Shown here: positions 26,080 to 53,870 of the stretch, in pieces
How the letters are laid out: each line of letters starts with the position of its first letter
Numbering within the stretch: the stretch's first letter is position 1
Virus record (IMG/VR): IMGVR_UViG_3300037842_000514
Source: a virus
Length of the DNA: 53,870 nt
Reading direction: 5' to 3' (one strand)
Position numbers and translations under genes: made by a program
The notes under the pieces: model-generated
What the model was told of the DNA's origin: nothing
Database searches by the model: none
The model's input: the letters and a program-made list of their open reading frames with translations, nothing else

Positions 26080-26886
26080 TTATTTCCCCAGGAAATGACT
26101 ACTACCCATGAACGTTCCACCAACTTTAGTATATTTCAATACATCTTTTGATGTAAACTTGTTGCCATAATACATATAATCCCCTTTAACAGTTTTAGGT
26201 CCATTTTTACAACTTAAAGTTCCATCACCAGGTGCGAAGTTTCCGTTTATAATACTTGGAACTCCAGTTAAGTCTTTTATTTTAGGTTCAAATGCTACGT
26301 AATAATCATTCCCAACTGACGTAGGACCCCCAACCAATGATGTTAAAACGCGACTTGCGGCGTTGAATGATCCACCAACTTTACTAGTACATCCAGCTAA
26401 CGTTTTATATGATCCAAATACATCCCAATCACCCGGTACCGATTTAGGTGAACCTTTCAATGATGTGATTGACTTATTATGTATACCAAATTTTCCTTTT
26501 ACTTTAACATTAGATAACCCTTCAAGTGATGTTAAACTTTCACAGTATCTGATGTTTAGGGGGCCTTTTATAGTAGTAGGCATACCTTTAAGACTTTTCA
26601 GATTATTATTATCGATGATATTAACATGTCCAGCTGTTTTTGGACTTCCTTCTAAAGTCGTTAATTTATTACACCCATCTATTGTGTACTCTTTTGGGGC
26701 TGCACTCGGAAAATCTGGAATGTCAGTAAGTTTTCCTACATTCTTGTTAATCAGTACCAAGTTTCTTTTTTTCTTCCACTCTGCTGATGAAGGATTCCAG
26801 TAGATTGGCGTTTTAGCTTCATTCAGATTCTGAATTTGAATTTCTTCTCTAATAATTTGTCTCAATTGTGTTTTAGTTATTTTCAT
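26080..26886 (-). CDS. LRR-like solenoid repeat protein with the shared MKITKTQLR leader
   Basis: About 9 repeats of LxSLxGxPxxVxG with ~22-aa period. Confidence 0.65.
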   Translation of the reverse strand: MKITKTQLRQIIREEIQIQNLNEAKTPIYWNPSSAEWKKKRNLVLINKNVGKLTDIPDFPSAAPKEYTIDGCNKLTTLEGSPKTAGHVNIIDNNNLKSLKGMPTTIKGPLNIRYCESLTSLEGLSNVKVKGKFGIHNKSITSLKGSPKSVPGDWDVFGSYKTLAGCTSKVGGSFNAASRVLTSLVGGPTSVGNDYYVAFEPKIKDLTGVPSIINGNFAPGDGTLSCKNGPKTVKGDYMYYGNKFTSKDVLKYTKVGGTFMGSSHFLGK

Positions 26887-26915
26887 AGTTTTAGTTCTCC
26901 GTGATTTAGTTATTT

Positions 26916-27191
26916 TTATAATGATTTCTTTAAAGCTTTGATTAAAGCATTCATCATTCCATCGGTAACTTGTCCTTCAAGTTTTTCAAAGTCACCATCA
27001 GAAAGTCCAGAATCTTCGAAAGGAAACCCTTCCCATAAGAATTCTGTCAAATTATTATGAATATCGTTTGCCCATTGTTTTACAGACTTATTCTTTAATG
27101 GTACCGTACCTTCTTTCACTCGACGTTTAGAGTGTGATTTTGATAGTTCTTCTTTGATCATTTTTCTTAATTGTGTTTTAGTTATTTTCAT
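26916..27191 (-). CDS. hypothetical protein with the MKITKTQLR leader
   Basis: 91 aa; GGAG RBS. Confidence 0.65.
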   Translation of the reverse strand: MKITKTQLRKMIKEELSKSHSKRRVKEGTVPLKNKSVKQWANDIHNNLTEFLWEGFPFEDSGLSDGDFEKLEGQVTDGMMNALIKALKKSL

Positions 27192-28456
27192 AGTATTCTC
27201 TCCATATTATTATAATTAATCCCACGTGATATCTTCACTGGAAATTTACCTGATACTTCTATGATACGTCTAATGTTATTTATAAAATCACTACCATCAG
27301 ATAAATCAACATCAAATAAAAAAGCATCATAATTATATAATACTAATTTACTTCTATAATTATCTAATATAGGAATAAGTTTACTTAACGTCAACATATT
27401 TTGTTCAGTTTCTAAATTCTGAATAATATAATTAAATAATTTATTCTTATTCATGTCAGTTAAATTGTCTTTAAATATCTTCTTACTATAAATATAAGAT
27501 TTTATAAAATCTGACCCTTTTTGGTCGATCCATAGTTGTGCTATATAGTCGTTAACTTTTCCAAAAAATGGTATCTCTTTGGCGATTTTATTAGGAATTC
27601 CTCCATAAAGATACTTGAAAGACATTACTTTACTCTCATCATAACTAACGCCGTAATGTGCTCCCAAATATTCATGAACAGATCCTTCTGGAAAATCATA
27701 TCCTACAACATCAGCTATCAATCTCAAATGGTATGCGTCATAATCCATCTCAACTAACACTCCATCCTTCCCAAATCTACTAATAAATTGTTCACGAGTT
27801 CCGTCTTTTTTATTTAAAGCTGCATAATTAACTCCACCGAACCTGTTGGAAGGTCTGCCTGTTGATGTGTATGGGTTGTATTCGGTATATTTCATTCCGT
27901 TGATTGTGTATATACCATTCTTTTCTATATATGATAGCACGTCAATTACATCGTTATTATATGATGTATGTACTGGTAATGTAGTATACCGTTCTAACCT
28001 ATCAACTAGTTTTCTACAATATTCGAGATGTTTTAATATTGGAATAATTTTATTTACATTACCCACATTATAATACTTATAATTAAAGTACTTATGGGCT
28101 TGTGTGGTTATATCCTCAACTTCTAACGGTTGATTGTACATTATATAATGTTGTAGGTTTACATCAATTACGTTTTCTAAACTAACTAGTTGATTTAACT
28201 GCTTTTTATTATAAGTGTATTTACGCATCTTAGAATGTAATTTATATAAATTCACTAATGGAAGATTCAATGCTTCAGAATGGTTGAATGGTAGAATATA
28301 CTCAGTGCTATCGATAATCTTAACATATAATATACATAGTTCAGTTTCAGATGGATGTTTGCTTTCATCTAACTGCACTGGGATTATAATACTATCGCTC
28401 TTTTTAAATTGAGCTATGAACTCACTAAACTGTTTTTGATTTTCTACTATAACCAT
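27188..28456 (-). CDS. divergent family A DNA polymerase-like protein
   Basis: TSTGRPS, motif A EMDYDAYHLRLIA, motif B KVMSFKYLYG, IQ...E, motif C YNYDAFLFD. Confidence 0.7.
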   Translation of the reverse strand: MVIVENQKQFSEFIAQFKKSDSIIIPVQLDESKHPSETELCILYVKIIDSTEYILPFNHSEALNLPLVNLYKLHSKMRKYTYNKKQLNQLVSLENVIDVNLQHYIMYNQPLEVEDITTQAHKYFNYKYYNVGNVNKIIPILKHLEYCRKLVDRLERYTTLPVHTSYNNDVIDVLSYIEKNGIYTINGMKYTEYNPYTSTGRPSNRFGGVNYAALNKKDGTREQFISRFGKDGVLVEMDYDAYHLRLIADVVGYDFPEGSVHEYLGAHYGVSYDESKVMSFKYLYGGIPNKIAKEIPFFGKVNDYIAQLWIDQKGSDFIKSYIYSKKIFKDNLTDMNKNKLFNYIIQNLETEQNMLTLSKLIPILDNYRSKLVLYNYDAFLFDVDLSDGSDFINNIRRIIEVSGKFPVKISRGINYNNMERIL

Positions 28457-28664
28457 TTTTACGTAACCTTCTCCTAATTATTCTATGGCGTATGAACCCT
28501 ACGACCCAACCAACCAATAACAATATAGCAATTGAAAAACCAACGATACTAAATGATGGTGCTTCTATCACTTTATACATAAATAATACAGCAGTTAGTA
28601 ATTGAATATAAAATTGAATTGCATCTAACCTCCGAAGTTTATGATTCATGCCAATATACCTCAC
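28425..28664 (-). CDS. small membrane protein
   Basis: Two hydrophobic segments and a basic tail. Confidence 0.45.
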   Translation of the reverse strand: MRYIGMNHKLRRLDAIQFYIQLLTAVLFMYKVIEAPSFSIVGFSIAILLLVGWVVGFIRHRIIRRRLRKNGYSRKSKTV

Positions 28665-29343: not shown

Positions 29344-29383
29344 AATTTTATAACCTTATTGATGTATATATATAACAAATTTA

Positions 29384-29983: not shown

Positions 29984-29989
29984 GTTATA

Positions 29990-32452: not shown

Positions 32453-32455
32453 ATA

Positions 32456-32758: not shown

Positions 32759-32763
32759 TTTAT

Positions 32764-34512: not shown

Positions 34513-34524
34513 TACATTCTCCTA

Positions 34525-36687
34525 TTAATTTTGACCTTGGCTAACCATTGCGCCATATAATGTTTGATTACCAGCTCCCTGACCACCTATACGTTTTGCT
34601 AATGCTCCATTTGGGCCTAGTGCTGTTAGAAGTGCATCTAATTTTTTATTAGTAGTTTCAAGATCAAACGTACCCACAGTTTCACCTTTATGAACTTTTG
34701 CTAAGCCAGTCTCCTCTATAGTACCCCCACCAGATAATGATGGCGTGGAAGTTGGAATTGGTGTGGTTTCGACATCAGATCCACCCCCAAATCCTAAAAA
34801 CGATCCAACTGAAGATATAGTTTCTTTAATAGCTTTTATAGCTTCCCACGCTAAGAATAATGGCCAAAATGCTAGCATTAATGCTTTTTTAGCTAAATTC
34901 CCAAATCCTCCGAAGTGTTTAGCGAGTAACACCACACCCGCTATTAAAGCCCCAACCCCTTCTTTAATAGCTTTTATAGCTTCCCACGCTAAGACTAATG
35001 GCCAAAATGCTAGCATTAATGCTTTTTTAGCTAAATTCCCAAATCCTCCTAAGTGTTTAGCGAGTAACACCACACCCGCTATTAAAGCCACAACCCCTAA
35101 TACAATCCATGTTATTGGATTTGCTAGAAGTGAAGCTGTAAGCCCCCACGATGCTGCAACCAAGCCCCCCATTGTACTCAGTAATGCCCACGCCCCTGCC
35201 ACCATCATAGGTCCAAATACAACAGCTAATATTGCACCAATCATAGGTAAATATGATACTATTACAGACAGTGCATCTGCTATATATTCCCATAATAATT
35301 GACTTGCCTTTTGTCCAGCATTCATGTTGTTCAATTTTTCCTGATTAGCAACCATCTTAGATAATTCACCTACACCAACACCTATCGATTCAGCTAACGC
35401 TCTTTTTTGGAGTACATTGAGTCTATTAAATTCTTCCACACTACCCATCTGACTCAAAATATCAGCAACTGCACCTTCTATATCGTCATTTAACGCTAAC
35501 CTACGAGCTGCATCATAATTTAAATTTCTACCAATCAACATTGAAGCTTCCATTTGTTTCTCTATTGAAGATTCGAAATCCAACAATGAATCTGCGATTT
35601 TAGTTGAAGTGCCTAGATTCACTCCTAACATTCTTGCTTGAACAGCAGCTCGTGCCATATTTTCACCACCATCTTTAGCGTAAGATGCAAAGGTGTCCAT
35701 ATCACCTGCCATATCTTCTAATACAGCTGCAGGAGCAACACCATTAGCTCGGGCTAATTCACTAGTCATTCTAATAGTACTAAATACTGCTTCATCACTA
35801 CTAGCGCCCATTGCACCCATACTAGCAAGTAATTTTGCACTCGTATCCGCTGACACTCCATACTGAAAGCTTAACATCTTCATGGATATTAAATTTTTAG
35901 TAGTTGCTTTTTCTAACGAACCAACATTATCTAATATGGCCTTAGCTTCGTCTCCAAATAATGCTATACCAGTACCCATTTGATTAAACGCTAATCCAGT
36001 CGACTGCGCGAAATCAAATGCGTTCTTAGCAAGTAATGCAAAGGCGCCTGCTATAGCTAATCCAGCACCACGCATTAGTACCATACGACCTTCACTCGTT
36101 TCTAATAAGTCCCCCCATCTTTTTACTTTGTTCTTTATTTTTTCAATGGCACCAAACATTGATTTATAAGCGTCATCATATTCATCCAAGATATCTTTAT
36201 TATTGCTTTGAAATTCGTTAATGTCGCCCATAACATTTAATTGTTCTTTTAATGGATTTAATTGTTCCGCTAATTGTAACCCTTTAAAACCTTCTGCAGC
36301 TGCTATCGCGTCTTCTATGGCTACTCTTTGTTGCAACTGATCTGTTAAACTAAGCTCACCTGATATAGCGTCGTGTTGAAGCTTTAATTGTTGTTGTTGA
36401 ATTTCAGCTGCAGCTACTCGACTTTTATCACCTAATAATAAATTCTCAGTTATTTGACGTTCTAGATTTCTTTGATTGAAAGTACTTTCTACATCGGATT
36501 GTTGGCGGTCTGATAAACTTCTTTTGGCTTTTAATTGATTTCTATACATGCCAAGCAGTTCTTTATTTGAGTTGGACAGTTTACCTTCTTCCATCGCTAC
36601 TTGTTTAATAGCTGCTACTCTATCTTGTAAAGATTTAATTATCTCTTTATTAGTTTTTATATGATCTTTATCTGATTTTGTAGGCAT
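34525..36687 (-). CDS. tail tape measure protein
   Basis: 720 aa, helical, Ala/Gln-rich, hydrophobic C-terminal segments; located between the chaperone and baseplate genes. Confidence 0.75.
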   Translation of the reverse strand: MPTKSDKDHIKTNKEIIKSLQDRVAAIKQVAMEEGKLSNSNKELLGMYRNQLKAKRSLSDRQQSDVESTFNQRNLERQITENLLLGDKSRVAAAEIQQQQLKLQHDAISGELSLTDQLQQRVAIEDAIAAAEGFKGLQLAEQLNPLKEQLNVMGDINEFQSNNKDILDEYDDAYKSMFGAIEKIKNKVKRWGDLLETSEGRMVLMRGAGLAIAGAFALLAKNAFDFAQSTGLAFNQMGTGIALFGDEAKAILDNVGSLEKATTKNLISMKMLSFQYGVSADTSAKLLASMGAMGASSDEAVFSTIRMTSELARANGVAPAAVLEDMAGDMDTFASYAKDGGENMARAAVQARMLGVNLGTSTKIADSLLDFESSIEKQMEASMLIGRNLNYDAARRLALNDDIEGAVADILSQMGSVEEFNRLNVLQKRALAESIGVGVGELSKMVANQEKLNNMNAGQKASQLLWEYIADALSVIVSYLPMIGAILAVVFGPMMVAGAWALLSTMGGLVAASWGLTASLLANPITWIVLGVVALIAGVVLLAKHLGGFGNLAKKALMLAFWPLVLAWEAIKAIKEGVGALIAGVVLLAKHFGGFGNLAKKALMLAFWPLFLAWEAIKAIKETISSVGSFLGFGGGSDVETTPIPTSTPSLSGGGTIEETGLAKVHKGETVGTFDLETTNKKLDALLTALGPNGALAKRIGGQGAGNQTLYGAMVSQGQN
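34823..35098. repeat. near-perfect tandem duplication, 2 x 138 nt (46 aa), in the tape measure gene
   Basis: GV.ALIAGVVLLAKH.GGFGNLAKKALMLAFWPL.LAWEAIKAIKE occurs twice, with DNA nearly identical. Confidence 0.92.
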
Positions 36688-36703
36688 TTTTAAGTAATCT
36701 TAA

Positions 36704-36964: not shown

Positions 36965-37023
36965 AATGTGTTCCTCTACTAATTTAAATTGAATATAATA
37001 ACTCAATAATAAATATCAAATTA

Positions 37024-37251
37024 TTAAGTTTTTCGCGATGATGGTGGCCTACTTAACCCCTTATTTTGCTTAGTAGACTTTTCCATTTGCTTCGCCTCTT
37101 CTTTATAACTAAGTTCGAGTTGTTTCAAATAGAACATACGTAAGTATGTGGGCATCATATAAACTTCATTAAATGTGAATCCACCTTTACCGTGGAAGCA
37201 TAGTTGATAGATTTGTTTGTGTATGTTAGGTTTATCTTCTGGTTTTAGGCC
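37024..37251 (-). CDS. frameshift extension of the tail assembly chaperone (GT-like)
   Basis: 75-codon open frame (GLKPEDKPNIHKQIYQLCFHGKGGFTFNEVYMMPTYLRMFY...) starting right at the T7 run and lacking its own upstream start. Confidence 0.6.
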   Translation of the reverse strand, partial: GLKPEDKPNIHKQIYQLCFHGKGGFTFNEVYMMPTYLRMFYLKQLELSYKEEAKQMEKSTKQNKGLSRPPSSRKT

Positions 37252-38017: not shown

Positions 38018-38103
38018 ATTAATGTCTCCTTATGTTTGGTTGTTTTGGTTAATAACTATTTTCTGTAACTATTAATTACAGTGTACTAAAACTATATGTA
38101 GTT

Positions 38104-38349
38104 TTATTTAATATATTTTTTTATAGCTTTAATAAAATCGTTTTTTGCACCTGGTCCAAATTCAGTTTTAATTAGGAAACCTACAGCACGTGCTGTTTCG
38201 TCCAAATTAGCACCATCTTTCTTATCAGCTTTTTCAAATCCAGCTTTAAGGCCTTTATATATCCAAGTCCAAGTTGATTCATTTTCTTCATTCAGAGTTT
38301 TAATCTCTTCTTTTATCATATTTCGTAATTGTGTTTTAGTTATTTTCAT
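38104..38349 (-). CDS. hypothetical protein with the MKITKTQLR leader
   Basis: Leader followed by TLNE. Confidence 0.65.
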   Translation of the reverse strand: MKITKTQLRNMIKEEIKTLNEENESTWTWIYKGLKAGFEKADKKDGANLDETARAVGFLIKTEFGPGAKNDFIKAIKKYIK

Positions 38350-38380: not shown

Positions 38381-38710
38381 TTACATGTTATCGAAATCGA
38401 TTATTTTTGATGCTGGCTGTGCCACCTTAACATATGCTGCTATTTCTTTTTTAAATGATTCGTATGATTTTTCAAGCTTTCCATATTGTTTTAATGCTTT
38501 ATCTATAGGGCCCACACTTTTCCCCTTAATGATAGCTTTTTGTTCTTTTGCATATTCAAAAGTATACCCATCTATATATTCGTCACTTAGAAATGCATCC
38601 AAATCATTCCATATTGAATTAGATATACTTGATACTTTATCTTCATTTAATAGTTCTTCTCTGATAATTTGTTTTAATTTTGTTTTAGTTAATTCCAATA
38701 ATGTCTTCAT
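38381..38710 (-). CDS. hypothetical protein with a leader variant
   Basis: LTKTKLKQIIREELLNE. Confidence 0.65.
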   Translation of the reverse strand: MKTLLELTKTKLKQIIREELLNEDKVSSISNSIWNDLDAFLSDEYIDGYTFEYAKEQKAIIKGKSVGPIDKALKQYGKLEKSYESFKKEIAAYVKVAQPASKIIDFDNM

Positions 38711-38949
38711 TTTATTCTCCCTATTATTTTAGTCAGCCGAGATATCATATCCAACATCCCAGGTACAGTTCTATAGTATTTTTCAGCCCATCCTTCTACT
38801 TTACCTTTATATTTAGTTGCATTGAAAATCTCATTTCTCAACGTATTCAACCCATCAACTAACATCTTAGGTGCATCATCGGGATCTATATAAGCTTCAG
38901 TTACTTCTTCTTTGATTATTTGTCTTAATTGTGTTTTAGTTATTTTCAT
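38707..38949 (-). CDS. hypothetical protein with the MKITKTQLR leader
   Basis: Leader followed by VTE. Confidence 0.65.
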   Translation of the reverse strand: MKITKTQLRQIIKEEVTEAYIDPDDAPKMLVDGLNTLRNEIFNATKYKGKVEGWAEKYYRTVPGMLDMISRLTKIIGRIK

Positions 38950-39142: not shown

Positions 39143-39739
39143 TTAATACAGTTTCCCAATTTTATTGGATAATTTCACCAATTTTTCACTAATCTTGCCC
39201 ATGGCTTTGTGAGTGTTTTTCCAGTAGCTTCTGGAATCAATGGACAGCTCGGTTTTTAGTTTGACATTCATCTTAACTAACTTATCTAACTCATTTAGTT
39301 TATCACGGACTTCTCTCATTGACTGACCAATTTTTTGTTTAGCACTCATCGATTCATCATTTCTGTAATCATGATACTTTCCCTCTCTTACTTTTGATTT
39401 GTGATTTTTCATGATACCAGCTAAAGTTGGAAGTGGATCACCGAATTTCCTGTTGGTAAATCCTGGAGTTTTTGATTCGTTTATAGACTCTTTTCTCAAT
39501 TTTGGGTTCTTTGTGACATATAAACCAGTTCCACGAGTTGGTTCTTCGTGACCTTTCGTGTATCCAGCCTTTCCTTTTTTAGTACCCTTTTTATTACTAC
39601 CACTGAAAGCGTGTGGTGTATTATAACTACCACCTACACTTGCAGTTGAATTTGCCTCATCTAATTCTTGTTTAATAAGTTCACGGACGAGTTTTCGTAT
39701 TAGACTTTCCCTATTTAACGACATTTCTAAGTTCTCCAA
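39143..39739 (-). CDS. putative prohead core/internal head protein
   Basis: Downstream of the portal; several (I/L/V)xE sites; LIRKLVRELIKQELDE. Confidence 0.45.
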   Translation of the reverse strand: MENLEMSLNRESLIRKLVRELIKQELDEANSTASVGGSYNTPHAFSGSNKKGTKKGKAGYTKGHEEPTRGTGLYVTKNPKLRKESINESKTPGFTNRKFGDPLPTLAGIMKNHKSKVREGKYHDYRNDESMSAKQKIGQSMREVRDKLNELDKLVKMNVKLKTELSIDSRSYWKNTHKAMGKISEKLVKLSNKIGKLY

Positions 39740-42494: not shown

Positions 42495-43275
42495 AACTTA
42501 TATTACTCCTATTTAATTTAATTCGTATAACATCATATCCTAAACTTTCAAGATATGTTTGTCGTTTTATATCCTTCTTTCTTAATTCACCATTCTTAAA
42601 ATGATGACTTTCATCAACTTCTATAATTGTTTTTCTATTTTCATCTAATCCATCTGGATAATATCCACCTATTCTTACTTCACCACCATTTTCTGCGTGT
42701 TGGAAGTTGTAGCCGTTTTCTTTTCCGTAGTTTTCTATTATTTTACAGGCGTCTGGGTTGTAGTTTGGTATCAATTGACCTCCATTTAATTCAGTTCGTT
42801 CAATTCTTCTTATGGCAGATATTCTTTGTTTTTTCTTTGTTTTTTCTGTATGAATGTTTCCAGTATTTGCAATACTTAATTTTTTTCTTGTTTCGTTACT
42901 CACTTCATGACCCATTCTTAATTTACTAAATTCTGGACGTTTCTTTCCATAAAATGGATTATTTTTTCCAGACATTGATATACTTATATTTTTTATATGA
43001 TCTTCAGATAAAATTCTACCTTTCTGTGAGCAACTCCTACACAAACTTTCATTTTTGATTGCTAAGTCTCGTCTATATTTGGTAGTATGTAAAACTTCCA
43101 CAATACATTTTGGACAAAATCTCTCATATTTTTTTTCATTTAAAATTTTCATTTTTCCAATGTGAGAACACGAATTGCAATTAGAATTTATTTTATTTGA
43201 ATAAGTATATCCAGACGTACTTGTATAAGTTAATTTTTTATTACAAGTTGGACAATTTCTTTTATATTCTGCCAT
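42484..43275 (-). mobile_element. free-standing homing endonuclease (Zn-finger, NUMOD3, Vsr/EDxHD-like) between terminase and portal
   Basis: CxxC pairs; GKNNPFYGK; ETRKKLS; YYPDG...IIEVDESHH...KD..RQ. Confidence 0.72.
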
Positions 43276-43287
43276 TTTACCCTCTTA

Positions 43288-44865
43288 TTATTTTATTAAC
43301 CATGTTAAATTTTCTTTTTCTCCAGCAACTTCCATTTCCCAAGAATCATTTCTATTATCCATTGGTTGGTAAACTGCTTCGTAATCTAATGTTCTACTTA
43401 ATACATCTTTCTGTAATGCTATTCCTTCTGATTTTAATCTTAATGCTGTATCTCTAACCCACATACCTATTGCAAGACTGATTGAAAGATCATCATTATA
43501 TCCTTCCATTGCCTGTGCCTTAAAATTGTGGTAAATAAATACAAACAATTCTTCTATCAATCTAGATGAATGAACTATTACAGTTTTTTCTCTAAAATAC
43601 TCTTCTAATTTTGCTATTACTAATGGTCGTGTTTTCATGGTCATACTGAAACCCGGGACCATCTTTTGATCCATATTTCTATATTTATTTGATATTTGAC
43701 GCTGAACATCCACGTAGTGTAAATCCTTACTCGTATAAAACAAATTATCATAATCTCTGTCTATAACTTGCTGTATTGCTGCCCAACCTATTGATGCATT
43801 TTCAATAACGAGTAACGCGTTGTTATATTCTACTGCAGTATTCATACATAAATTACCAAAATCTTTTGTGGATATTTTTCCTTTATATTCCGCTACTTGT
43901 TCCATTTTCTGTACATCTATTACGTGGAATGCTGAAAAGTCATTACCATCACCACGGGCAACGTCAGCACTCAATACATAATCTTGTGTGTAATCTGGTG
44001 GTCTCCATATCCATAAATTACTATCAAATCCCCTTTTTTCCATTGGTTCTTCAATGTGGGTATTTTTATATTCTTCAAGTATAACACCATCAATTACAGT
44101 TTGACCAGATGTGATGAATGAGCAATCACATTCTTGTGCTGCCATTGAAGGACCTAATAGTTTATCTTGGTCATCTCTCCAATCTTGTTCCCTATCTGGG
44201 TGTACTGTCCAATGGAGTTTAATGAAATTCCAATCATTTTTCCCTTCTTCAGCTCCAGCCCATGTTTTATGAAACCAATTTCCTACTCCATTGGGTGTGC
44301 TTAATGCAATACATTGACCACCAGTAGATAAGGTACTTTGTGCCGCTGTCCATATTGCATCAATTTTTGGAATAAATGAGGCTTCATCGAGTATCAATAA
44401 TGATAATGCTTCTGATCTACCACTATCTTCACCACTGGAAATTGCCTTTACTTGTGAACCATTTGAATATTTTAAAGATAATTTATTATCCTCCGTACAA
44501 CTGGATTTTACCCAATTTGGAAGATTAGCATGCATAACTCGTATTTTTGTTACGAGATTTTTTGCTGTATCCTGTTTGGTAGCAATAACCAATATATTCT
44601 TGTCTGTTTGAAAGGTCATCATCCATAATGAATAACCAGCTACGAGAGTGGATATTCCTAACTGACGAGCTTTGAGAATAATATTATAATTGTGCTTATT
44701 AAAATCTTCTAATGTTTTTTCTTGGAAATCATATAAGGAAAATGGAATTTTACCGTCTATTGGATGTTGAATGACAGCATACTTTTTTAGAAAGTATATT
44801 GGGTCTTTAGCACACTTTATGTATTCGGCTTTTATTATTTCTTTTATGTTTTGGCTATTACTCAT
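43288..44865 (-). CDS. terminase large subunit (T4 gp17-like)
   Basis: LKARQLGIST, LILDEA, STPNG, SADVARG.G.D, NDDL. Confidence 0.95.
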   Translation of the reverse strand: MSNSQNIKEIIKAEYIKCAKDPIYFLKKYAVIQHPIDGKIPFSLYDFQEKTLEDFNKHNYNIILKARQLGISTLVAGYSLWMMTFQTDKNILVIATKQDTAKNLVTKIRVMHANLPNWVKSSCTEDNKLSLKYSNGSQVKAISSGEDSGRSEALSLLILDEASFIPKIDAIWTAAQSTLSTGGQCIALSTPNGVGNWFHKTWAGAEEGKNDWNFIKLHWTVHPDREQDWRDDQDKLLGPSMAAQECDCSFITSGQTVIDGVILEEYKNTHIEEPMEKRGFDSNLWIWRPPDYTQDYVLSADVARGDGNDFSAFHVIDVQKMEQVAEYKGKISTKDFGNLCMNTAVEYNNALLVIENASIGWAAIQQVIDRDYDNLFYTSKDLHYVDVQRQISNKYRNMDQKMVPGFSMTMKTRPLVIAKLEEYFREKTVIVHSSRLIEELFVFIYHNFKAQAMEGYNDDLSISLAIGMWVRDTALRLKSEGIALQKDVLSRTLDYEAVYQPMDNRNDSWEMEVAGEKENLTWLIK

Positions 44866-45240: not shown

Positions 45241-45241
45241 A

Positions 45242-45520: not shown

Positions 45521-45541
45521 TTAATTTCTCCTTATATATAA

Positions 45542-45856: not shown

Positions 45857-46164
45857 TATTCCATCTCCATTATTTTTTTATAAGTAGACTTACCTTCTAA
45901 CTTCTTAGTTTTTGACGGTTCATCAAATTCACTATCCATTGGTTCTTTATATTTACCATATCCTTCACTATCACGTTTTATGTCCTCAGTAAAACCTTTG
46001 TCGAAAATATTTACAGTTTTAAAAAGTCTAAATTTAAGTGCTGGGCGATCATTTATCAATAAATCCCCCTTTTCATTCCATTTAATAGATTTAATTACTA
46101 CTGGCTTATTCTTAAATTTACCCATTTTTACAGTGTCGCCTTTTTTAATCGGTAATTCAATCAT
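45856..46164 (-). CDS. hypothetical protein (GDTVKMGKFKN family)
   Basis: 102 aa; start overlaps the endonuclease stop. Confidence 0.6.
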   Translation of the reverse strand: MIELPIKKGDTVKMGKFKNKPVVIKSIKWNEKGDLLINDRPALKFRLFKTVNIFDKGFTEDIKRDSEGYGKYKEPMDSEFDEPSKTKKLEGKSTYKKIMEME

Positions 46165-46952
46165 TTTTTGCTCCTACAATTATTGAAATGATATCGTTTC
46201 ATATTAGTTACTCCTCCAGTTTTATCACAGTTAGGACAAGTATCTATTTTTTGTTTATGTATCCGTCCACAATTTTCAAAATGATATCGATGCATCAAAT
46301 TTATTCCACCAACTACACCACATGATGGGCATTCAACTCTTGAAAATTTCATACCTGTTCTGCCAATGCTCATATTTCGACATCGTTCTTTAGATAATGG
46401 TATGCCCATTAACGCATCACTAATACTTTTACGATGAGATTCTGTTAATTTTTTTTCAGTAAGACCTTTGCTAATATTATTACAATGTTCTTCAGATTTA
46501 GTTACTCCAAACATTGTCTTACTAATATTTTTACGATGTTCATCAGATAAATTTCTACCCAGCAAGCCTTTACTAATATTCATAGAATGTTCTTTAGAAC
46601 GAATTCTTCCTTTTAATGATTTGCCTTTTTTCTTATTTGATTCTTCCGAAAAAATATGATTAAATCCACCATTAGTCATATTATATCCGGTTCCCTCATC
46701 CATAAAAGTATTATATTCTTTAATATAATATGATTCCATTTTATTTAACTCATCCATAGAATTACACTCACATATAATACCCCACTTAAAATTTTCTATG
46801 CCATATTTACGAAGTGCATTATGAAAATAAAAATTTGAATTTCCATTAAATGCGCTCTGGCAATGACCTTTTTTTCTATCTTCCAATGTCTTAATCGTCT
46901 GACCAATATAAGATTTATCATTTATTTCATTGTGTGCTCGATAAATAATCAT
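46161..46952 (-). mobile_element. free-standing GIY-YIG homing endonuclease with NUMOD3 repeats (Seg-like)
   Basis: IIYRAHN..NDKSYIGQT, LNKMESYYI, GYNMT.GG; repeated HxxxISxxL.G units. Confidence 0.85.
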
Positions 46953-46953
46953 T

Positions 46954-47037
46954 TTAATTTCTCCAGCTTATCATGAGATTTTTGAACTTCCCCGTTTTGA
47001 TCACATCTCCCACGGAAACATCTATTGTAATTGCCAT
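46954..47037 (-). pseudogene. 27-codon truncated paralog of the N-terminus of 45856-46164
   Basis: MAITIDVSVGDVIKTGKFKN-LMISWRN* versus MIELPIKKGDTVKMGKFKN. Confidence 0.65.
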
Positions 47038-47717
47038 TATTTTTTCCCCTTTGGTAATAAATCAACTAATTTATTTCCTTTCCATTCTCTACTATCTACT
47101 CTACCACCTATTCTATGGTCTATCCATTTTCCCCATAATTTTTCATTTTTAGCAAATATAGACTGACCACCTTTTTGAACTTGTCTATATCCACTTGCAC
47201 TTCCCATTTCCTTAGAACCCGGTTCTGGTGTTGGATCGATTCCACCACTTTTAGTTCCCTCTGGAGGTGTAGTTGGTTTAATCAAAGTTTCCGACGTTGA
47301 ATGGAAGTTTGAGGTTTCTGGTGGAATTGTATATTCTTGTTTTCTATGAAATCCGTGGATTCCATACATTCTCTGTTTTGGTGCTAATGGTGGAGTGTCG
47401 TCTCGTAATTCATTTGCCATTATTGATGCGTATTCTTCTGGACCACTTAAATAACGATATACCATTGCTTTATCTCGTTCTGCCCGTTTTAAATTATTTA
47501 GACTTCCGTTACCACCGTAAATATTGTCCGATGCTGGAAAATCAATTTGTGTCATACCACGAGTTAAACTTGCAGGTCCCACTACTCGTCTCTCTCCACG
47601 TTTAGTGTAAAGACCGTCTGGCCATCCATCTCCAATTTCACCTAAACCTGTACCATGTCCGCCAGCTGATGACCCTTCATTTATAAGTTTTAACATTTTC
47701 GTTTCAAATTTATTCAT
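47037..47717 (-). CDS. hypothetical protein
   Basis: 226 aa, Gly/Pro-rich; starts ...KLINE. Confidence 0.6.
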   Translation of the reverse strand: MNKFETKMLKLINEGSSAGGHGTGLGEIGDGWPDGLYTKRGERRVVGPASLTRGMTQIDFPASDNIYGGNGSLNNLKRAERDKAMVYRYLSGPEEYASIMANELRDDTPPLAPKQRMYGIHGFHRKQEYTIPPETSNFHSTSETLIKPTTPPEGTKSGGIDPTPEPGSKEMGSASGYRQVQKGGQSIFAKNEKLWGKWIDHRIGGRVDSREWKGNKLVDLLPKGKK

Positions 47718-48287
47718 TCAATCTTCCAATAAGTTAGTCTTCCACCATTCAGGTGATAAATTCTCTACATGAAGTCGCGGTCTACCTCCACTAAATTTTG
47801 GTGATTTCTTTGCGGGGTCTGATGTATTACGTATGTTATCTTCTATACGACCTTCAGCGTCAATTCCAGATGCTACAGGTGGACCAGCAAATAATACATT
47901 CTTATCATCTACTCCCAACCATTTAATTACACTCCAACCTAAATTTTCTATCACATCACGTAATCTGTTTTTATATTTTTTCTTAGCTCCGTATGAAATT
48001 GCTGGAACTTCTCTGTAGTCCATAGTATAATCTTCTTCTGGATCCATTGCACCGTCACTTAAAATATATCCAATTACCTTATATCCTAAATCATTCTGTA
48101 ATTGCTTAACCCAGTCTTTGGTTTCTTGTTTATATTGATCCAATGATTTGTAAAATGTTCCTGGACCGTCATCTACTGGTGCTTTTCTGGTACCTGCACC
48201 TTCTTTTATGATAGAAATTATATCATTTTCTACTATAAAATCTCCTATTTTATCACCACTAAACTCATTTAAAATCTTTTTATGCAA
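47718..48287 (-). CDS. hypothetical protein
   Basis: 189 aa; TTG start after a GGAG RBS and a promoter-like motif. Confidence 0.55.
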   Translation of the reverse strand: MHKKILNEFSGDKIGDFIVENDIISIIKEGAGTRKAPVDDGPGTFYKSLDQYKQETKDWVKQLQNDLGYKVIGYILSDGAMDPEEDYTMDYREVPAISYGAKKKYKNRLRDVIENLGWSVIKWLGVDDKNVLFAGPPVASGIDAEGRIEDNIRNTSDPAKKSPKFSGGRPRLHVENLSPEWWKTNLLED

Positions 48288-48333
48288 TAATCTTCTCCAA
48301 GATATACTTTATCACTTATAAATATCAATTTAC

Positions 48334-48891: not shown

Positions 48892-48896
48892 AACCG

Positions 48897-49931
48897 TTAC
48901 CTCAAATGTTTGTTTACTATTTTAACTGCCTCTAAAGCATGTTTTCGTGTTTGCTTTATCATTTCAAATGACTCTGGCGTTTCTGCTTTCTTAAATTTTG
49001 AATTCGATAATTGTTTCTTTGTTTGTTTTGCGTAATTACTTCTAACATTCTTTATGAATTCCTTTGAGTTTTTCATATTACTCAATCCACCTTTACCAAG
49101 AACTCCATTTTGTTCTAATGTCTTTGCCATTCCTATAATTCCAATACAGAAACTTTTTATGGATACATTTTCGGTATCTATTCCCTTATACTTAATAAGT
49201 AGTGGGTCAATCTTTATTTCTTTAATATTTATTTTTGGGTCGTTTAGTTTAACTAAAAAACGAGTTGCGTGATACATAAACTTACCAATATCTGTTGAAA
49301 TTAACTTAAACTCTATTCCTTTTCTATTTCTTGACGTAACTAAAATGTTATTCTTGAATCTTCCCAAAACACCCTCTGTTCCAAATGACATTGTTACTGT
49401 ATTTCCAAGAGCACTATATAAATTTCCAATAGTAAACCCCTTTAATCCATATTGTGGCTTATATCTTCCACTCATCCAGTCTGTATATGGTTTGAATGTC
49501 AATATCAAATCAACTTGACTATAAACTTCCTCTCCCAAATTGAAAATTACTGAATTTCCTTTGGTGTGTAATGTATCAGTAATCTCTACGTTTTTTGGAG
49601 CCTTTGTTTTTACATAAGTAAGAAAAGTTTCAAGATATTTTCGTCTTATTGCATTTTCCTTCTTTCTAAAATCTTTTTGGTCTATAACTGAAATTGGTAT
49701 TTCTACCAACATATCAATATCACCATATATTTTATCAACTTTATGTTTCAAATCATGCTTATAGTAACTTGTAGATCCAACTGGAGTTAATTTACCAAGT
49801 GGTTGTAGTCCACTCGTTTTCAAAAAAACATTAAAATTTTTAACAAACCTCTCAAACTCTTTTACTGACGCCTTCACTATCATTGGAGTTAATTTAGTTT
49901 TCTGGGTTTTTACTGTTTCCCATCCGCCCAT
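48897..49931 (-). CDS. Pol-beta superfamily nucleotidyltransferase-like protein
   Basis: VGST...YGDIDMLV and a third acidic strand SQVDLI. Confidence 0.6.
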   Translation of the reverse strand: MGGWETVKTQKTKLTPMIVKASVKEFERFVKNFNVFLKTSGLQPLGKLTPVGSTSYYKHDLKHKVDKIYGDIDMLVEIPISVIDQKDFRKKENAIRRKYLETFLTYVKTKAPKNVEITDTLHTKGNSVIFNLGEEVYSQVDLILTFKPYTDWMSGRYKPQYGLKGFTIGNLYSALGNTVTMSFGTEGVLGRFKNNILVTSRNRKGIEFKLISTDIGKFMYHATRFLVKLNDPKINIKEIKIDPLLIKYKGIDTENVSIKSFCIGIIGMAKTLEQNGVLGKGGLSNMKNSKEFIKNVRSNYAKQTKKQLSNSKFKKAETPESFEMIKQTRKHALEAVKIVNKHLR

Positions 49932-49934
49932 TTT

Positions 49935-50834
49935 TTATAACTCCTTTGGAATTGGGAATTTATATCTTGTTAGTGTAGTTTTGTATGCATCAAATATTTT
50001 CCTATTCAACTTTTTAAATAAAAAGTCCTTTGACTTCATCAACTTATATAATTTTTCAAATGAATCAATATCTTTAAACGTGCGTTTTGATCCGAATAAA
50101 AATTTTGCTAACTTATCCATATCCCCAATTACTTTTCTTATTTTTAGTTTAACTCGTTTTCCCTTTTCGTTTGTGGTAAAATCAACTAACTCTACACCAT
50201 TTTTCCAATTCATTTGAAATTTTCTCTTAACGTCAGGATCTTTTGTTTTTAATATCGTTTGAGAAAAAATATCTGCAATTAATAAATTACGATATACTGC
50301 TTTGTATTTACTTCTATAATCTGATGCAGAAAGTGCTTTTTTCATGAATTCTAAATCACCAATCATAACATCAATCTGAACATATCCAGGATCACCTAAA
50401 TCATTTCCATCTTTATCTACAGCGTTTAGTTGAGTACCACTTTTATCTACAAGTGGGGTGATGAAGTGAGCCTGTTTTAATCCCTTATTAATTTTATGAT
50501 CCTTAATTTTAGTTCTACCTAAAAACTTATCTAACTCTCCCCAAAATTCAGTTGCTTCACCGTTAAACTTCATAATTTTAGCCATGACTGATACATCTAC
50601 TGCAATATCAATATCCCCTAAAAATGGTTTTTTATAGTTTCCTATGATTGTGTATTTTAATTTTTTTAGACCAGCATCTACGAGAGATTTTTTGATTGTA
50701 GCATCCAGATGTTCACTTGGGACTACTGAATTTACATCACTAAAAACATTACCACCTTCAAGTAATAAACGTTTAAAATGTCTCTTTATTTCTTCTCGTA
50801 TTAATTTTCTTACACTATTTTCCGTTATCATCAA
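49935..50834 (-). CDS. Pol-beta superfamily nucleotidyltransferase-like protein with leader
   Basis: IIGN...LGDIDIAVD and VQIDVM; leader ends LLLE|GGN. Confidence 0.6.
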   Translation of the reverse strand: MMITENSVRKLIREEIKRHFKRLLLEGGNVFSDVNSVVPSEHLDATIKKSLVDAGLKKLKYTIIGNYKKPFLGDIDIAVDVSVMAKIMKFNGEATEFWGELDKFLGRTKIKDHKINKGLKQAHFITPLVDKSGTQLNAVDKDGNDLGDPGYVQIDVMIGDLEFMKKALSASDYRSKYKAVYRNLLIADIFSQTILKTKDPDVKRKFQMNWKNGVELVDFTTNEKGKRVKLKIRKVIGDMDKLAKFLFGSKRTFKDIDSFEKLYKLMKSKDFLFKKLNRKIFDAYKTTLTRYKFPIPKEL

Positions 50835-50842
50835 TTCTCTCC

Positions 50843-52546
50843 CTAATCTACATTACGGTCTAAATACATTTGAGATACAACTTCTGGAGTATTTTTCTTT
50901 AATAAGTTTTTCATATTCTTAATTCTATTAATTGTCAATATTATACTTTTTCGTGTATCTTCACGTTTCTTTGGAATGGTTACTAATTCATCACCATCAC
51001 TTTTAAATTCAGCGGCTATTGATTTAACACTTGCTTCAAGTTTAACCAAATAACCTTCAAGTCCAGTTGGGTCTACCTTAATGCGTTTAACCAACTCTTT
51101 TTCTGCGTTCTGTAAATCATTCATGTATTTCCAATTGCGTTCTTTACGAGCAGTAAACTGATTTTTATCTACTATCTTGACCACATTTCCATCAGGAACA
51201 TATAATACAAGTCCTTCATCTTCTTCACCAAATGCACGTTGAAAATCTACTTTCAATACTTTACCTTTCATCTTTTTACCAATCAAATTTGCTATTCTCT
51301 GTATTTGATATTTGATTTTTTTATGGTGTGGTTTTCTTGCTGGGGTATTTAATAAATTTCCATATTTTTCAATCATCTTACTTAACAAAATTTCATAACT
51401 TTCTTCAAAATGAACTTGTTTTAAATTTACTTTTGGATTTGAAAAGAATTTAATGGTAGTTTTCTTATTTGCTTCTTTAGCAAATACATCGTGAAATGCT
51501 ATTGGAGTTTCTACACCATCAACTATTATTTTAAATAATACTACTATACCATCACCAATTTTTTCTGGATCATATAATACTATATTGTAATCCCATGATG
51601 GTATTGCCTCACATTCAATAGATATGTTTTTAGTATTACCTTCAATGCCAAATTTCTTTGCATATTTATCTACTATTTTCTTATATGGAATTTTCTTTAA
51701 TAATTTATGATACTTTACGAAATCTTCATAAAAATATAATGAAGGATAATCTTTTTCGTGTTTAACAGTTTTAGTTTTTGATCCTGAATAAAACCCTCCA
51801 CCCCTTATTCCAAATTGGAAAAAGTGACCATCTACCTTTTCATTAACTTCAAATTTTGTATTGTCGGCATTCCACAGTTTTAAGAAGTTTAATAAATCCT
51901 TTGGTTTCATATCCTCTATATGTTTAATACCTTCTGTTAAAACTCCCTCTGTGATACCAAATTTCGTCTTAAAGATACCATATACGGACTTATTAACTTT
52001 ACCGTATAGAGTTTTAAATGCATCCTTTGGATTATCACCTTTGAATGCATTTCTAACAACAGTTCCACTAATAGTTTTTCCATCAATTTTCATTTGAAGT
52101 TGTGGGACAGTAATTACATATCCTTTTGTTTCAAAACTTTCCATATCTTTACCTGTATATGGGTTATAATACTTTCCACTTAATCTACCAGCATCCTTTT
52201 CACCGAGACCAACTACCAACGCAGTAGTTTTCTCATCAAACTTAGACTTTATCTCTACAGTATTATATGGATTTTTAACTTGAATGATGTTAGATTTTGG
52301 AACTTTAAACATTTTAGATATTATAGCTTCTTTTTCCTTAAAATCAAATGGTGATTTACCATCAGTTTTATTTGAAGTTCCTATAAATACATTTTTCTTA
52401 CCGAATTTTTTAACTAAGAATTCGTATGCGTGATGATGTCCTTTATGATATGGTTGGAATCTACCGGAGTATACTGCTATGGTTTTTTTTATTTCACCAG
52501 TATCTTCCAATAATTCTTGTATTAACTGTGTTGCTAATTTACTCAT
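50843..52546 (-). CDS. HxGH cytidylyl/adenylyltransferase (NMNAT-like) fused to an ATP-dependent ligase-like nucleotidyltransferase domain
   Basis: YSGRFQPYHKGH and ISGTVVR in the N-domain; NEKVDG (KxDG), EDEGLVL and VVKIV in the C-domain. Confidence 0.65.
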   Translation of the reverse strand: MSKLATQLIQELLEDTGEIKKTIAVYSGRFQPYHKGHHHAYEFLVKKFGKKNVFIGTSNKTDGKSPFDFKEKEAIISKMFKVPKSNIIQVKNPYNTVEIKSKFDEKTTALVVGLGEKDAGRLSGKYYNPYTGKDMESFETKGYVITVPQLQMKIDGKTISGTVVRNAFKGDNPKDAFKTLYGKVNKSVYGIFKTKFGITEGVLTEGIKHIEDMKPKDLLNFLKLWNADNTKFEVNEKVDGHFFQFGIRGGGFYSGSKTKTVKHEKDYPSLYFYEDFVKYHKLLKKIPYKKIVDKYAKKFGIEGNTKNISIECEAIPSWDYNIVLYDPEKIGDGIVVLFKIIVDGVETPIAFHDVFAKEANKKTTIKFFSNPKVNLKQVHFEESYEILLSKMIEKYGNLLNTPARKPHHKKIKYQIQRIANLIGKKMKGKVLKVDFQRAFGEEDEGLVLYVPDGNVVKIVDKNQFTARKERNWKYMNDLQNAEKELVKRIKVDPTGLEGYLVKLEASVKSIAAEFKSDGDELVTIPKKREDTRKSIILTINRIKNMKNLLKKNTPEVVSQMYLDRNVD

Positions 52547-52695
52547 CTTCGTCCACCTTTATCAAAGTCCTTTGAAAACTTCTGTAATTTACCAAATGCT
52601 CTAAACTTTTTCATTTTCTCTTGTTTACTCCATTTCATTTTATCAAATACTTTCATTCTCTCCGTTAGTGGAAGTAGTGATGACAATTTAATCAT
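52543..52695 (-). CDS. 50-aa protein with an MIKLxxLL leader
   Basis: Manual translation MIKLSSLLPLTERMKVFDKMKW...; overlaps both neighbours. Confidence 0.5.
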   Translation of the reverse strand: MIKLSSLLPLTERMKVFDKMKWSKQEKMKKFRAFGKLQKFSKDFDKGGRR

Positions 52696-53212
52696 ATTTT
52701 ACCAACTGTGACTTCATTTTTATATGTGGATATTTCCGTTTTAATTTCTTTACTGCATTTACATTTTTATTGGAATCATCGAAAAATGCTATATCATCGT
52801 ATCCTTTTTTGATTTGGCCTTCTACCCAATCCGCTTTCTTTTGTGGATTTGCATCTGCAAGTGCTACTACAAATACATCTCCGTGGCCACTATCCTTAAA
52901 AAATTGTCTGACTGGTTTATATTTTGATCTGGCTGTAAGTATAGTTAGACGACGATTTCCAACTGCACTATGTATTCTCTTAAATACCTTAAACATACTT
53001 TTTATTTTTTTAGGGTCTATTACTTTATCAAATTCTGAAAAATCTATTTCATCACCTGGTTCTGGTTTATATACTGCGTATAGTCCTGGTGTCATTGTTA
53101 TTTTCTTTCCATTACGCATTAAATAAACTTTAGAATTAGATTTTACTAGTGTATCATCAAAATCAAATACTCGGAGTTTTTTTTCTATTAATAAATCTTT
53201 AAGTTTTATCAC
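52688..53212 (-). CDS. HAD-superfamily phosphatase (PseT 3'-phosphatase-like)
   Basis: VFDFDDTLV, ILTAR, K, FFDDS..N. Confidence 0.8.
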   Translation of the reverse strand: MIKLKDLLIEKKLRVFDFDDTLVKSNSKVYLMRNGKKITMTPGLYAVYKPEPGDEIDFSEFDKVIDPKKIKSMFKVFKRIHSAVGNRRLTILTARSKYKPVRQFFKDSGHGDVFVVALADANPQKKADWVEGQIKKGYDDIAFFDDSNKNVNAVKKLKRKYPHIKMKSQLVKYD

Positions 53213-53302
53213 TACCTAATTCCATCACATAATATAGTATTACAAACACCACCGCACTCAATAATAAAAAATCAAATTTTGCTACTATGAAATCACTAAA
53301 CA

Positions 53303-53665
53303 TTACTTATCTAGCTTCCAACGTTTATCTGCTATTTTCTTCATACTTTTAAGAATAGTTTCTAATGCAACTACACTCTGATAATTATGTTTCCAATTTG
53401 GTTTAACAAAATCTTTATTTGTCCTGTTGGCCGTATTAAATATTTTATTAGCATGACCAAGAACTGTTTTAGCATATATTCTAAATTTTTTAGTTAGTTC
53501 TTCCCTTCCACTTTCACTAATAATCTCTCTAATCTTTTTTCGTAATACTCGTTCTTGTAATTCATCTTTTGCCATCATCATCTCCCGTTTAGATATTTTA
53601 ACTTTTTGTTTTCCGATTTCTCTCGGTTTGTCTATGTGAAATTGTGCTATTATTTTATATCCCAA
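53303..53665 (-). CDS. hypothetical protein
   Basis: Leader-like VLRKKIREIISE; the true start is probably internal. Confidence 0.45.
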   Translation of the reverse strand: MGYKIIAQFHIDKPREIGKQKVKISKREMMMAKDELQERVLRKKIREIISESGREELTKKFRIYAKTVLGHANKIFNTANRTNKDFVKPNWKHNYQSVVALETILKSMKKIADKRWKLDK

Positions 53666-53870
53666 GTTTTAATAGATTTTAAAACATAAGTAAGCGTTCC
53701 AACCTCATAATTAAATGCCTTTGCTAATTTATCATTTTTAAGATGTAAAATCATTGAGTATTTCTTAAATGTTTCTATTGAAGATTTAAGTGTTTTTACT
53801 ATAGCCATTTTATTTCCAGCACCTGCATATTCATTCAAAAGTTCTTCTCTGATGAGTTCTCTTAGTTGTG
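53650..53870 (-). CDS. hypothetical protein with leader, truncated at the window edge
   Basis: The frame is open to the edge: QLRELIREELLNE|YAG. Confidence 0.55.
   Translation of the reverse strand, partial: QLRELIREELLNEYAGAGNKMAIVKTLKSSIETFKKYSMILHLKNDKLAKAFNYEVGTLTYVLKSIKTWDIK

Follow-up and report, generated by a model that had tools for sequence, protein, structure and literature searches.

Short N-terminal leaders resembling T4 capsid-targeting propeptides begin unrelated proteins of an uncultured T4-like phage

Introduction

Why should genes for unrelated proteins begin with the same short peptide? The question is raised by a 53,870-nucleotide stretch of viral DNA (IMG/VR virus record IMGVR_UViG_3300037842_000514; the whole stretch is called the window here), in which the leader MKITKTQLR or a variant of it opens many open reading frames (ORFs). 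An initial annotation had proposed that this leader is a portable packaging tag by which the phage loads diverse effectors into its head for injection, and had named a leader profile search and an inspection of scaffold and capsid proteins as ways to follow it up. For only a handful of model phages is it known which proteins the capsid carries into the host together with the DNA, and such capsid-borne proteins act first against host defences. If the leaders work as in phage T4, they would allow such proteins to be recognised cheaply, from sequence alone, across uncultured marine and freshwater T4-like phages, which form a very large group.

The capsid targeting sequence (CTS) of T4 IPI, IPII, IPIII and Alt was reportedly described by Mullaney and Black in 1996, and the capsid-targeting concept is already established for T-even phages. 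What is new here is the scale, the enzyme cargo and a second, two-site leader. In T4 IPIII, the first 10 residues are enough for packaging; within the CTS, residues 4 and 7 act in targeting and residues 8 and 10 in processing, and cleavage by gp21 follows L/I-x-E (PMC9026906). The statement in the initial annotation that gp21 removes the targeting sequence of T4 internal proteins after (I/L)-x-E agrees with this work. The same protease removes exactly the first 10 residues of the T4 vertex protein gp24 (PMC9958956), and the CTS is the one common part of the hypervariable set of T-even internal proteins (PMC3012670).

Results

The repeated unit is the start of the coding sequence

The exact leader MKITKTQLR (full form MKITKTQLR..I(K/R)EE; type 1) opens the ORFs at 26886, 27191, 38349 and 38949, and a degenerate codon pattern for it matched four times in the window versus 0 times in 100 shuffles. 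These four starts, which belong to a 62-nucleotide repeat family, had been described as near-identical in DNA, and they are: mean pairwise identity was 0.38 in the 30 nucleotides upstream of the ATG, 0.98 over nucleotides 1–24, 0.76 over nucleotides 25–48 and ~0.3 beyond, so that the repeat is confined to the first ~16 codons. Eleven further genes of the window carry leader variants or a 10-residue form. The variants noted earlier at 38710, 39739, 50834, 53303–53665 and in an edge ORF were all present, some with adjusted start codons, and leader-like N-termini at 26075, 47717, 48287 and 52546 were added to the list. Of the 37 genes at 24.8–53.9 kb, 15 begin with a leader, whereas none of the 33 genes of the replication half does (Fisher p = 1.4e-5). 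As the initial annotation had it, the domains behind the leaders are unrelated: the mature parts of the 15 proteins have no significant mutual similarity (all E > 0.005 in a 15-sequence database). Pfam and PHROGs gave no families for the small cargoes and most leader-bearing proteins.

A bare hydrophobic-x-Glu site in the first 30 residues is also common among non-leader genes, and therefore the full motif alone discriminates. The N-terminus of the large terminase (TerL; ..NIKEIIKAEY.. in the window, QLKDVIKQEY in relatives L016-L054) was considered as a leader and rejected, being conserved as TerL sequence and lacking the hydrophobic-x-Glu register; the type-1 regular expression also matches it, a false positive of simple leader patterns.

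Two leader lengths, one motif

A second leader, MIKLxxLL (type 2), is present at 53212 and 52695 as previously reported, but it does not stand as a separate type: the order hydrophobic, K/R, x, hydrophobic, hydrophobic, x, Glu is a core common to both. The long form corresponds to an MKIT extension plus KTQLRQIIRE, a decapeptide that aligns residue for residue with MIKLKDLLKE; the two leader types are one motif. In 98% of type-1 proteins a hydrophobic-x-Glu site, which was absent from the search pattern, ends at residue 14. A second such site at residues 17–27 was found in 70 of 89 type-1 proteins (79%) versus 20 of 89 (22%) for a control interval, and the residue that follows it is most often Gly or Ala. 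The type-1 leader has two conserved sites, one at residue 14 and the next at ~18–23. An LNE-type site after the leader had been noted and is seen, but not as the sole site, given the additional cut motif at residue 14 in type 1.

The T4 N-termini in NC_000866 (an arrow marks the junction here and below) are MKTYQEFIAE↓A for IPII/IPIII, MELITELFDE↓D for Alt, MAKINELLRE↓S for gp24, MNEPQLLIE↓T for gp21, MLKEQLIAE↓A for gp22 and ..FLTE↓AEIGG for gp23. In the type-2 consensus M-I-K-L-K-D-L-L-x-E, positions 4, 7 and 8 are hydrophobic and position 10 is Glu, the same layout as in gp24, Alt and IPII/III. When 999 ATG windows in 104 kb of T4 were scored with a position-specific scoring matrix (PSSM) built from 38 marine leaders of relatives, those of the window under study excluded, the gp24 propeptide ranked second.

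As a side observation, T4 gene 61.1 (NC_000866 18966-19130) encodes an uncharacterised protein of 54 residues that begins MKTFKEFIKE, which nearly repeats the leader of IPI/IPII/IPIII and has Glu as its tenth residue; gp61.1 ranks fifth of the 999 windows.

The leaders are N-terminal, widespread and conserved as peptides

A portal search of viral contigs gave 599 related stretches, and 80 of the 599 were kept as relatives. In these, protease, scaffold and capsid genes follow the portal gene within 2–3.5 kb, and the interval between portal and major capsid genes holds a gp21-type protease (PF03420), a scaffold-like protein and many small leader ORFs that start MIKLK(D/N)LLxE, MKKLKDLLKE or MKITKTQL... 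In 1152 distinct ORFs of relatives, the first 13 residues contain the type-2 core 67 times and all other positions 36 times, a 32-fold enrichment; 44 of the 67 N-terminal matches lie exactly at residue 3. Shuffled proteins give 1 match. In the complete 216-kb relative G001, leaders begin 3 of 13 head-module genes versus 1 of 253 others (p = 4e-4).

Codon-pattern scans of IMG/VR found MIKLKDLLxE in at least 118 stretches and MK(I/L)TK(T/S)QL(K/R) in at least 114. Among the matches listed were 85 distinct proteins with the short form and 97 with the long form, with leaders at ORF starts and usually behind a GGAG-like site. The profile search, made with 30 columns of the type-1 leader, returned 6,963 cluster representatives (E <= 0.001) among 1.84 billion proteins; a leader copy stands at residue 1–4 in 100 of the best 150 matches, and 56 of these 150 hold two to four copies. 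Cargo among the relatives includes an ortholog of a HAD phosphatase of the window (L119), P-loop kinases (L097, G001) and NUDIX hydrolases (L169, L171). A first single-linkage clustering of cargoes, which merged 271 proteins via lysine-rich low-complexity matches, was left out of the family counts.

In both leader types, synonymous codons follow the background usage of the same genes, and selection therefore acts on the peptide and not on RNA.

Among cultured phages, a tblastn search with a 22-residue leader gave one uninformative match (E = 2). Cultured carriers are Flavobacterium phage vB_FspM_immuto (immuto; host Flavobacterium sp. LMO8), in gp231 (NC_055915 24569-24994, MIKLIDLLTE), and Microcystis phage Mel-JY01, in an unannotated ORF (MIKLKQLLNE). 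Immuto has weaker candidates at 115572, 116612, 109868, 111711 and 103366. The Mel-JY01 ORF (PP395634 62733-63102) lies in an annotation gap and probably represents either a gene missed by the annotation or the actual start of the one that follows. Text searches of the literature found no paper containing the leader strings or naming the leader, and no virion proteome of a leader carrier was found in the literature searched.

Cargoes change leaders at hydrophobic-x-Glu

The same cargo can carry a type-1 leader, a type-2 leader or no leader, or can follow another domain, and the join always comes after hydrophobic-x-Glu. In a nucleotidyltransferase alignment (A1), for example, the domain starts at an invariant GGN after a near-invariant Glu, preceded by type-1 leaders, by the type-2-like MIKLLPLLE↓GGN, by no leader (M↓GGNVF, MINE↓GGN) or by another nucleotidyltransferase domain (..LITE↓GGN). 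Genes that are separate in the window (for a 189-residue, a 102-residue and an NMNAT-like protein and a 50-residue remnant) are modules of multi-domain proteins of 780–1470 residues in relatives.

Leader carriers have a gp21-type protease about as often as completeness allows

PF03420 (Peptidase_S77) was found in 12 of 24 type-2 leader records and 19 of 29 type-1 records (31 of 53 overall), in 7 of the 8 leader records that are at least 90% complete, and in 5 of 5 relatives tested through the portal. At one copy per phage, summed CheckV completeness predicts about 12.0 (type 2) and 12.6 (type 1) hits. The data are therefore consistent with all leader carriers being S77 phages. The S77 gene of one relative lies at L006:4818-5435.

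In a close relative, the protease shares 29% identity with T4 gp21 and retains the GEL(N/D)HP and G(V/I)SSRG motifs, which we take to hold His85 and Ser140 in T4 gp21 numbering. The scaffold protein of relatives begins MDDLLKE, like the end of the leader. Complex prediction for residues 1–40 of leader A3 with conserved N- and C-terminal parts of the scaffold (A2, L021), run without controls, scored 0.00, a result that speaks neither for nor against binding.

Leader-bearing genes of the window

Table 1. Genes of the window with leaders or leader-like N-termini.
Feature	Coordinates	Strand	Basis or remark
Type-1 leader (MKITKTQLRQIIREEIQIQNLNE) + 245-residue LRR-like cargo	26080..26886	-	exact leader, repeat, DNA identity
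Type-1 leader + 64-residue acidic cargo	26916..27191	-	exact leader, DNA identity
Type-1 leader (..IKTLNE) + 60-residue cargo	38104..38349	-	exact leader
Type-1 variant leader (MKTLLELTKTKLKQIIREELLNE; 38710 ..KLKQIIREELLNE) + 86-residue cargo	38381..38710	-	repeat family
Type-1 leader (..IIKEEVTE) + AYIDPDD-family cargo	38707..38949	-	exact leader
Conserved 193-residue head-module protein, type-1-like N-terminus ..LIRKLVRELIKQELDE↓ANSTAS	39143..39724	-	beside portal
Type-1-like leader (residues 1-25, ends LLLE) + Pol-beta-fold nucleotidyltransferase	49935..50831	-	alignment A1, model
Type-2 leader MIKLKDLLIE (GTG start) + HAD phosphatase, Pnk-phosphatase-like	52688..53212	-	PHROG 415
Type-2-like leader (MIKLSSLLPLTE) + 38-residue remnant (50-residue ORF)	52543..52695	-	relatives
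Leader-like N-terminus (MSKLATQLIQELLE; ..LIQELLE) + cytidylyltransferase/NMNAT-like domain, KxDG ligase-like part	50843..52546	-	Pfam PF01467, PHROG 3041/395
Leader-like N-terminus (..MLKLINE) + GD.WPDGL-family cargo	47037..47717	-	relatives
Short leader-like N-terminus (MHKKILNE) + 181-residue module	47718..48287	-	relatives
10-residue leader-like N-terminus (MNILDKILNE) + 407-residue protein, viral family	24822..26075	-	just outside the coordinates of the initial annotation
FHID.PREIGK module, leader-like stretch (..VLRKKIREIISE), 69-residue cargo	53303..53665	-	start uncertain, TTG 53665 or ATG 53581
5'-open edge ORF with QLRELIREELLNE	53650..53868	-	repeat family D3

Three domain labels had been proposed for the cargoes in Table 1. 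The HAD label held (PHROG 415, E 1.9e-8; DFDDT motif), and so did the nucleotidyltransferase label, through an AlphaFold model and Foldseek similarity to Pol beta/lambda/mu (E ~4e-6, template-modelling score 0.35–0.40); the leucine-rich repeat (LRR) label, with an atlas score of 0.95 and no Pfam match, is a lead only. The LRR-like cargo is homologous to at least nine tandem paralogs in L155, a 295-kb contig, and those paralogs have the type-2 leader.

Several other cargoes recur in relatives. The homolog of the 38104..38349 product in L108/L111 has another N-terminal stretch with the same ..KLNE ending before ENES.WTW. The AYIDPDD cargo follows a type-2 leader in L043 (MIKLKDIVKE↓AYIDPAD) and a longer propeptide in L135 (..DTVKE↓AYIDPDD) and is internal in L014. 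Homologs of the GD.WPDGL-family cargo in L007 and L012 have MKKLK(N/D)L(L/I)KE at the same junction, and the 181-residue module opens a reading frame of 1111 residues in L112/L205, as its N-terminal portion, and is internal in L013, L053 and others. The acidic cargo of 26916..27191 had no homolog among the fetched loci of relatives.

The 193-residue protein, whose real start is probably the ATG at 39724 of ORF 39739, recurs behind the portal and a 288-residue gene in ~40 loci of relatives, and its N-terminal stretch invariably reads ..E(L/I/M)xE↓A(S/N/T). It is probably a prohead core component.

The nucleotidyltransferase of ORF 50834 starts at ATG 50831, and its N-terminus reads ..VRKLIREEI..LLLE. 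In the AlphaFold model of the 298-residue product (mean predicted local distance difference test, pLDDT, 91), residues 4–25 form a lone helix with pLDDT 62–66, and a confident domain with pLDDT above 90 begins at about residue 30. Two neighbouring Pol-beta-type nucleotidyltransferase genes, of 298–299 and then 344 residues, occupy 48897-50831, and the first alone has a leader. The same two enzymes are fused in the opposite order in P0026, P0027 and P0033, with the 344-residue type first and the junction ..LITE↓GGN. The NCBI entries for the leader-bearing enzyme (P0001, P0002) include an identical one under a 'Candidatus Woesearchaeota archaeon' metagenome-assembled genome (MAG) and another, 86% identical, assigned to a 'Pelagibacteraceae bacterium' MAG. 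Both lie on phage contigs that were binned with cellular genomes; the name Pelagibacteraceae may be a hint of the host and counts as no evidence.

The leader of the HAD phosphatase has the top PSSM score of the window (24.6). Its orthologs keep the leader in L105, L119 and L194 and have none in L202, and in L203 the domain lies behind ..VNE↓ADTN. The adjoining gene at 52543..52695 looks like a rearrangement remnant; its cargo equals the last 38 residues of proteins of 540–1140 residues in relatives (L007, L113, L119, L194). The FHID.PREIGK module, a free-standing frame of ~50 codons before large multi-domain genes in L112, L127, L141 and L156, continues in frame, in the window, into a leader-like stretch and the 69-residue cargo.

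Setting and neighbouring genes

All genes of the window are on the minus strand, and the G+C content is ~32%. Replication and nucleotide-metabolism genes fill 1–24.8 kb; terminase, portal, baseplate, tail and leader-bearing genes fill 24.8–53.9 kb. TerL (43288-44865, minus strand) is gp17-like, with 54% identity to TerL of Mel-JY01 and 53% to that of immuto, and the portal protein (40635-42494, minus strand; PHROG 213, E 1.4e-62) is gp20-like and anchors the head module. Judged by these two genes, the window is a fragment of a distant, uncultured T4-like myovirus of marine origin. Megablast with 24 kb of the window gave no match among cultured phages, which offer no close relative.

The T4 late-promoter consensus TATAAATA has six matches on the coding strand versus seven on the other strand, with no enrichment, and does not inform on timing; two of the six coding-strand sites (39039 and 27284) lie ~90 nucleotides upstream of the type-1 genes at 38949 and 27191, within the preceding genes. 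A 263-residue ORF (42484-43275), whose N-terminus holds Cys-rich repeats and whose C-terminus is endonuclease-like, separates the terminase and portal genes; these are neighbours without an insert in relatives (e.g., L005, L007, L012), and the ORF therefore looks like an insertion of the homing-endonuclease type. A GIY-YIG-like ORF is found at 46161-46952. Finally, a 720-residue tape-measure-like gene contains a perfect-register tandem duplication in which 138 nucleotides occur twice with 98% identity (34822-35097), doubling a hydrophobic segment of 46 residues.

Discussion

We think it likely, with room for doubt, that the leaders are a T4-type family of capsid-targeting propeptides, which come in two lengths and sit on a large set of proteins that changes from phage to phage, and that the roughly fifteen leader proteins of the window are probably packed into the virion. 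The leader motif, its N-terminal position, its conservation as a peptide, its portability, the junctions at hydrophobic-x-Glu and the co-occurrence with S77 are the observations behind this reading; core binding, cleavage, presence in the virion and injection we infer by analogy with T4. In the proposed mechanism, the N-terminal amphipathic peptide would bring a protein into the prohead by co-assembly with its scaffolding core. There a prohead protease of the gp21 type (Peptidase_S77) would then cut after hydrophobic-x-Glu: after residue 10 in the short form, and after residue 14 and again at ~18–23 in the MKITK(T/S)QL form (e.g., in MKITKSQLKQIIKEELEKVLNE, after E14 and E22). The mature protein would stay inside the head; it might serve there as a core or internal protein, or be cargo and exit along with the DNA.

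The portable packaging tag of the initial annotation is supported in that the leader is N-terminal, conserved as a peptide, built on the 4/7/8/10 grammar, accompanied by S77, swapped or lost at hydrophobic-x-Glu and a lone helix in a structural model. The extension to all bearers as injected effectors need not hold, because some look more like prohead core components: the small recurrent head-module families, like the 193-residue protein, are probably of this kind rather than injected.

A more specific proposal, which is possible and which we hold only tentatively, is that the leader marks a virion-delivered kit of enzymes, released with the DNA, for RNA repair or for nucleotide- or NAD-type counter-defence before phage genes are expressed. 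In the window, the kit might comprise the Pnk-like HAD phosphatase, the two Pol-beta-fold nucleotidyltransferases, the NMNAT-like/ligase-like protein and the LRR protein; in relatives, it might include the NUDIX hydrolases and P-loop kinases. If so, two leader profiles would list thousands of candidate injected-protein families across uncultured T4-like phages, the clusters found with type 1 alone being a first count.

Several observations weigh against a T4-type propeptide family. First, the IPII/IPIII leader MKTYQEFIAE fell outside the top 20 of the 999 T4 windows scored with the marine PSSM. The likeness to the internal-protein leader therefore lies in pattern and grammar, not in sequence, and gp24 alone is close in sequence. 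Second, the best 150 profile matches contain 95 internal leader copies, inside long proteins; Met is kept in 60 of the 95, and many copies stand 2–3 residues after an upstream hydrophobic-x-Glu. Third, the S77-bearing cultured phages Syn9, S-PM2 and HTVC008M have neither leader pattern at up to 2 mismatches, and the tag is therefore limited to a clade. Fourth, tblastn found no prohead protease, scaffold or major capsid gene in the window. After the portal come the conserved 288- and 193-residue genes, a 62-residue gene and three leader genes, directly followed by the genes for the baseplate hub (37232-38017) and the tail; the head module is therefore split in this phage or contig (37232-40577). 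Fifth, G013 (207 kb, rated 100% complete) has neither an S77 gene nor a gp23-type capsid gene; because the latter is also missing, it is probably a fragment of a larger genome and not a counter-example. Finally, support for every leader protein stays at the level of sequence and structural model.

Three other explanations deserve comment. The leader could be a permanent amphipathic helix that serves oligomerisation or docking on scaffold or DNA, is kept on the protein and marks no injection. Its predicted helicity, the many small, basic bearers in the head module, the internal copies and a scaffold protein that itself begins like the leader's end would all suit such a role. We nevertheless consider it unlikely, as cargo junctions always fall right after hydrophobic-x-Glu, homologous enzymes without the leader exist (P0034, P0020, L202), a helix has no evident structural role on HAD, nucleotidyltransferase, NUDIX or kinase domains, and gp21 cleaves off every one of the nearest counterparts in T4 (PMC9026906, PMC9958956).

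It is still less probable that the leader is a recognition tag for some other machine, either a modifying enzyme, as for ribosomally synthesised and post-translationally modified peptides, or a membrane or secretion route. A common leader on unrelated proteins is also a hallmark of maturase-recognition sequences, and several bearers lie outside the head module (26–27 kb and 47–53 kb in the window; immuto gp231 adjoins a phosphoesterase). Against this, the motif ends in the known cutting motif of the S77 protease, the polarity of the leader is too high for it to be a Sec or Tat signal, and the protease is found about as often as completeness allows, although it was the sole partner tested, with no open gene census. 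These points weaken the explanation; a second enzyme was not looked for systematically. The least probable alternative, that the common 5' ends are a nucleic-acid-level feature such as a translation-initiation cassette or a recombination hot spot, fits the 98% identity of the first 24 nucleotides within the window, synonymous sites included (pointing to recent copying or gene conversion), and A-rich codons of the kind favoured near starts, but it is largely refuted because synonymous codons vary at background rates across contigs while the peptide is fixed, and also because the conserved unit begins at the ATG and not at the ribosome-binding site and the motif recurs in frame inside long proteins.

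If the leaders are indeed T4-type capsid-targeting propeptides, whole enzymes and not just small inhibitors would routinely be loaded, and the tags could bring foreign proteins into heads of phages other than the models, a use to which the T4 tag is already put. A cultured carrier, phage immuto, makes the idea directly testable.

How do the leaders compare with known systems? Encapsulin cargo-loading peptides, an analogy only, are likewise short, portable peptides that take diverse enzymes into an HK97-fold shell, but they are usually C-terminal, stay uncleaved, bind the shell protein and are non-viral. In phiKZ, 201phi2-1 and SPN3US, a diverged gp21 homolog cuts many head proteins after Glu, and the propeptides likewise have an inferred role in prohead targeting, paralogs with identical N-termini and several sites; their motif is S/A/G-x-E, however, they mostly exceed 100 residues and they belong to another lineage (PMC5694885, PMC7411985), whereas the marine leaders are short and T4-like. 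The gp24 propeptide is the closest T4 sequence, sharing K3, a hydrophobic residue at 4, an acidic one at 6, L7, L8, a basic residue at 9 and E10, but gp24 is a shell protein and not cargo, whereas the marine leader stands on dozens of non-shell proteins. A further parallel is the CTS found on T4's internal proteins and on Alt, which also occupies the N-terminal 10–20 residues, has hydrophobic positions 4/7/8, Glu 10 and an L/I-x-E end for gp21, and is carried by proteins that otherwise have nothing in common, one of them an enzyme (Alt). The marine leaders differ from it in sequence (MIKLKDLLxE and MKITK(T/S)QLKQIIKEE..LxE versus MKTYQEFIAE), in the two conserved sites of the long form, in the copies inside long multi-module proteins and in a cargo set, known here from sequences alone, that is far larger and rich in nucleotide-handling enzymes.

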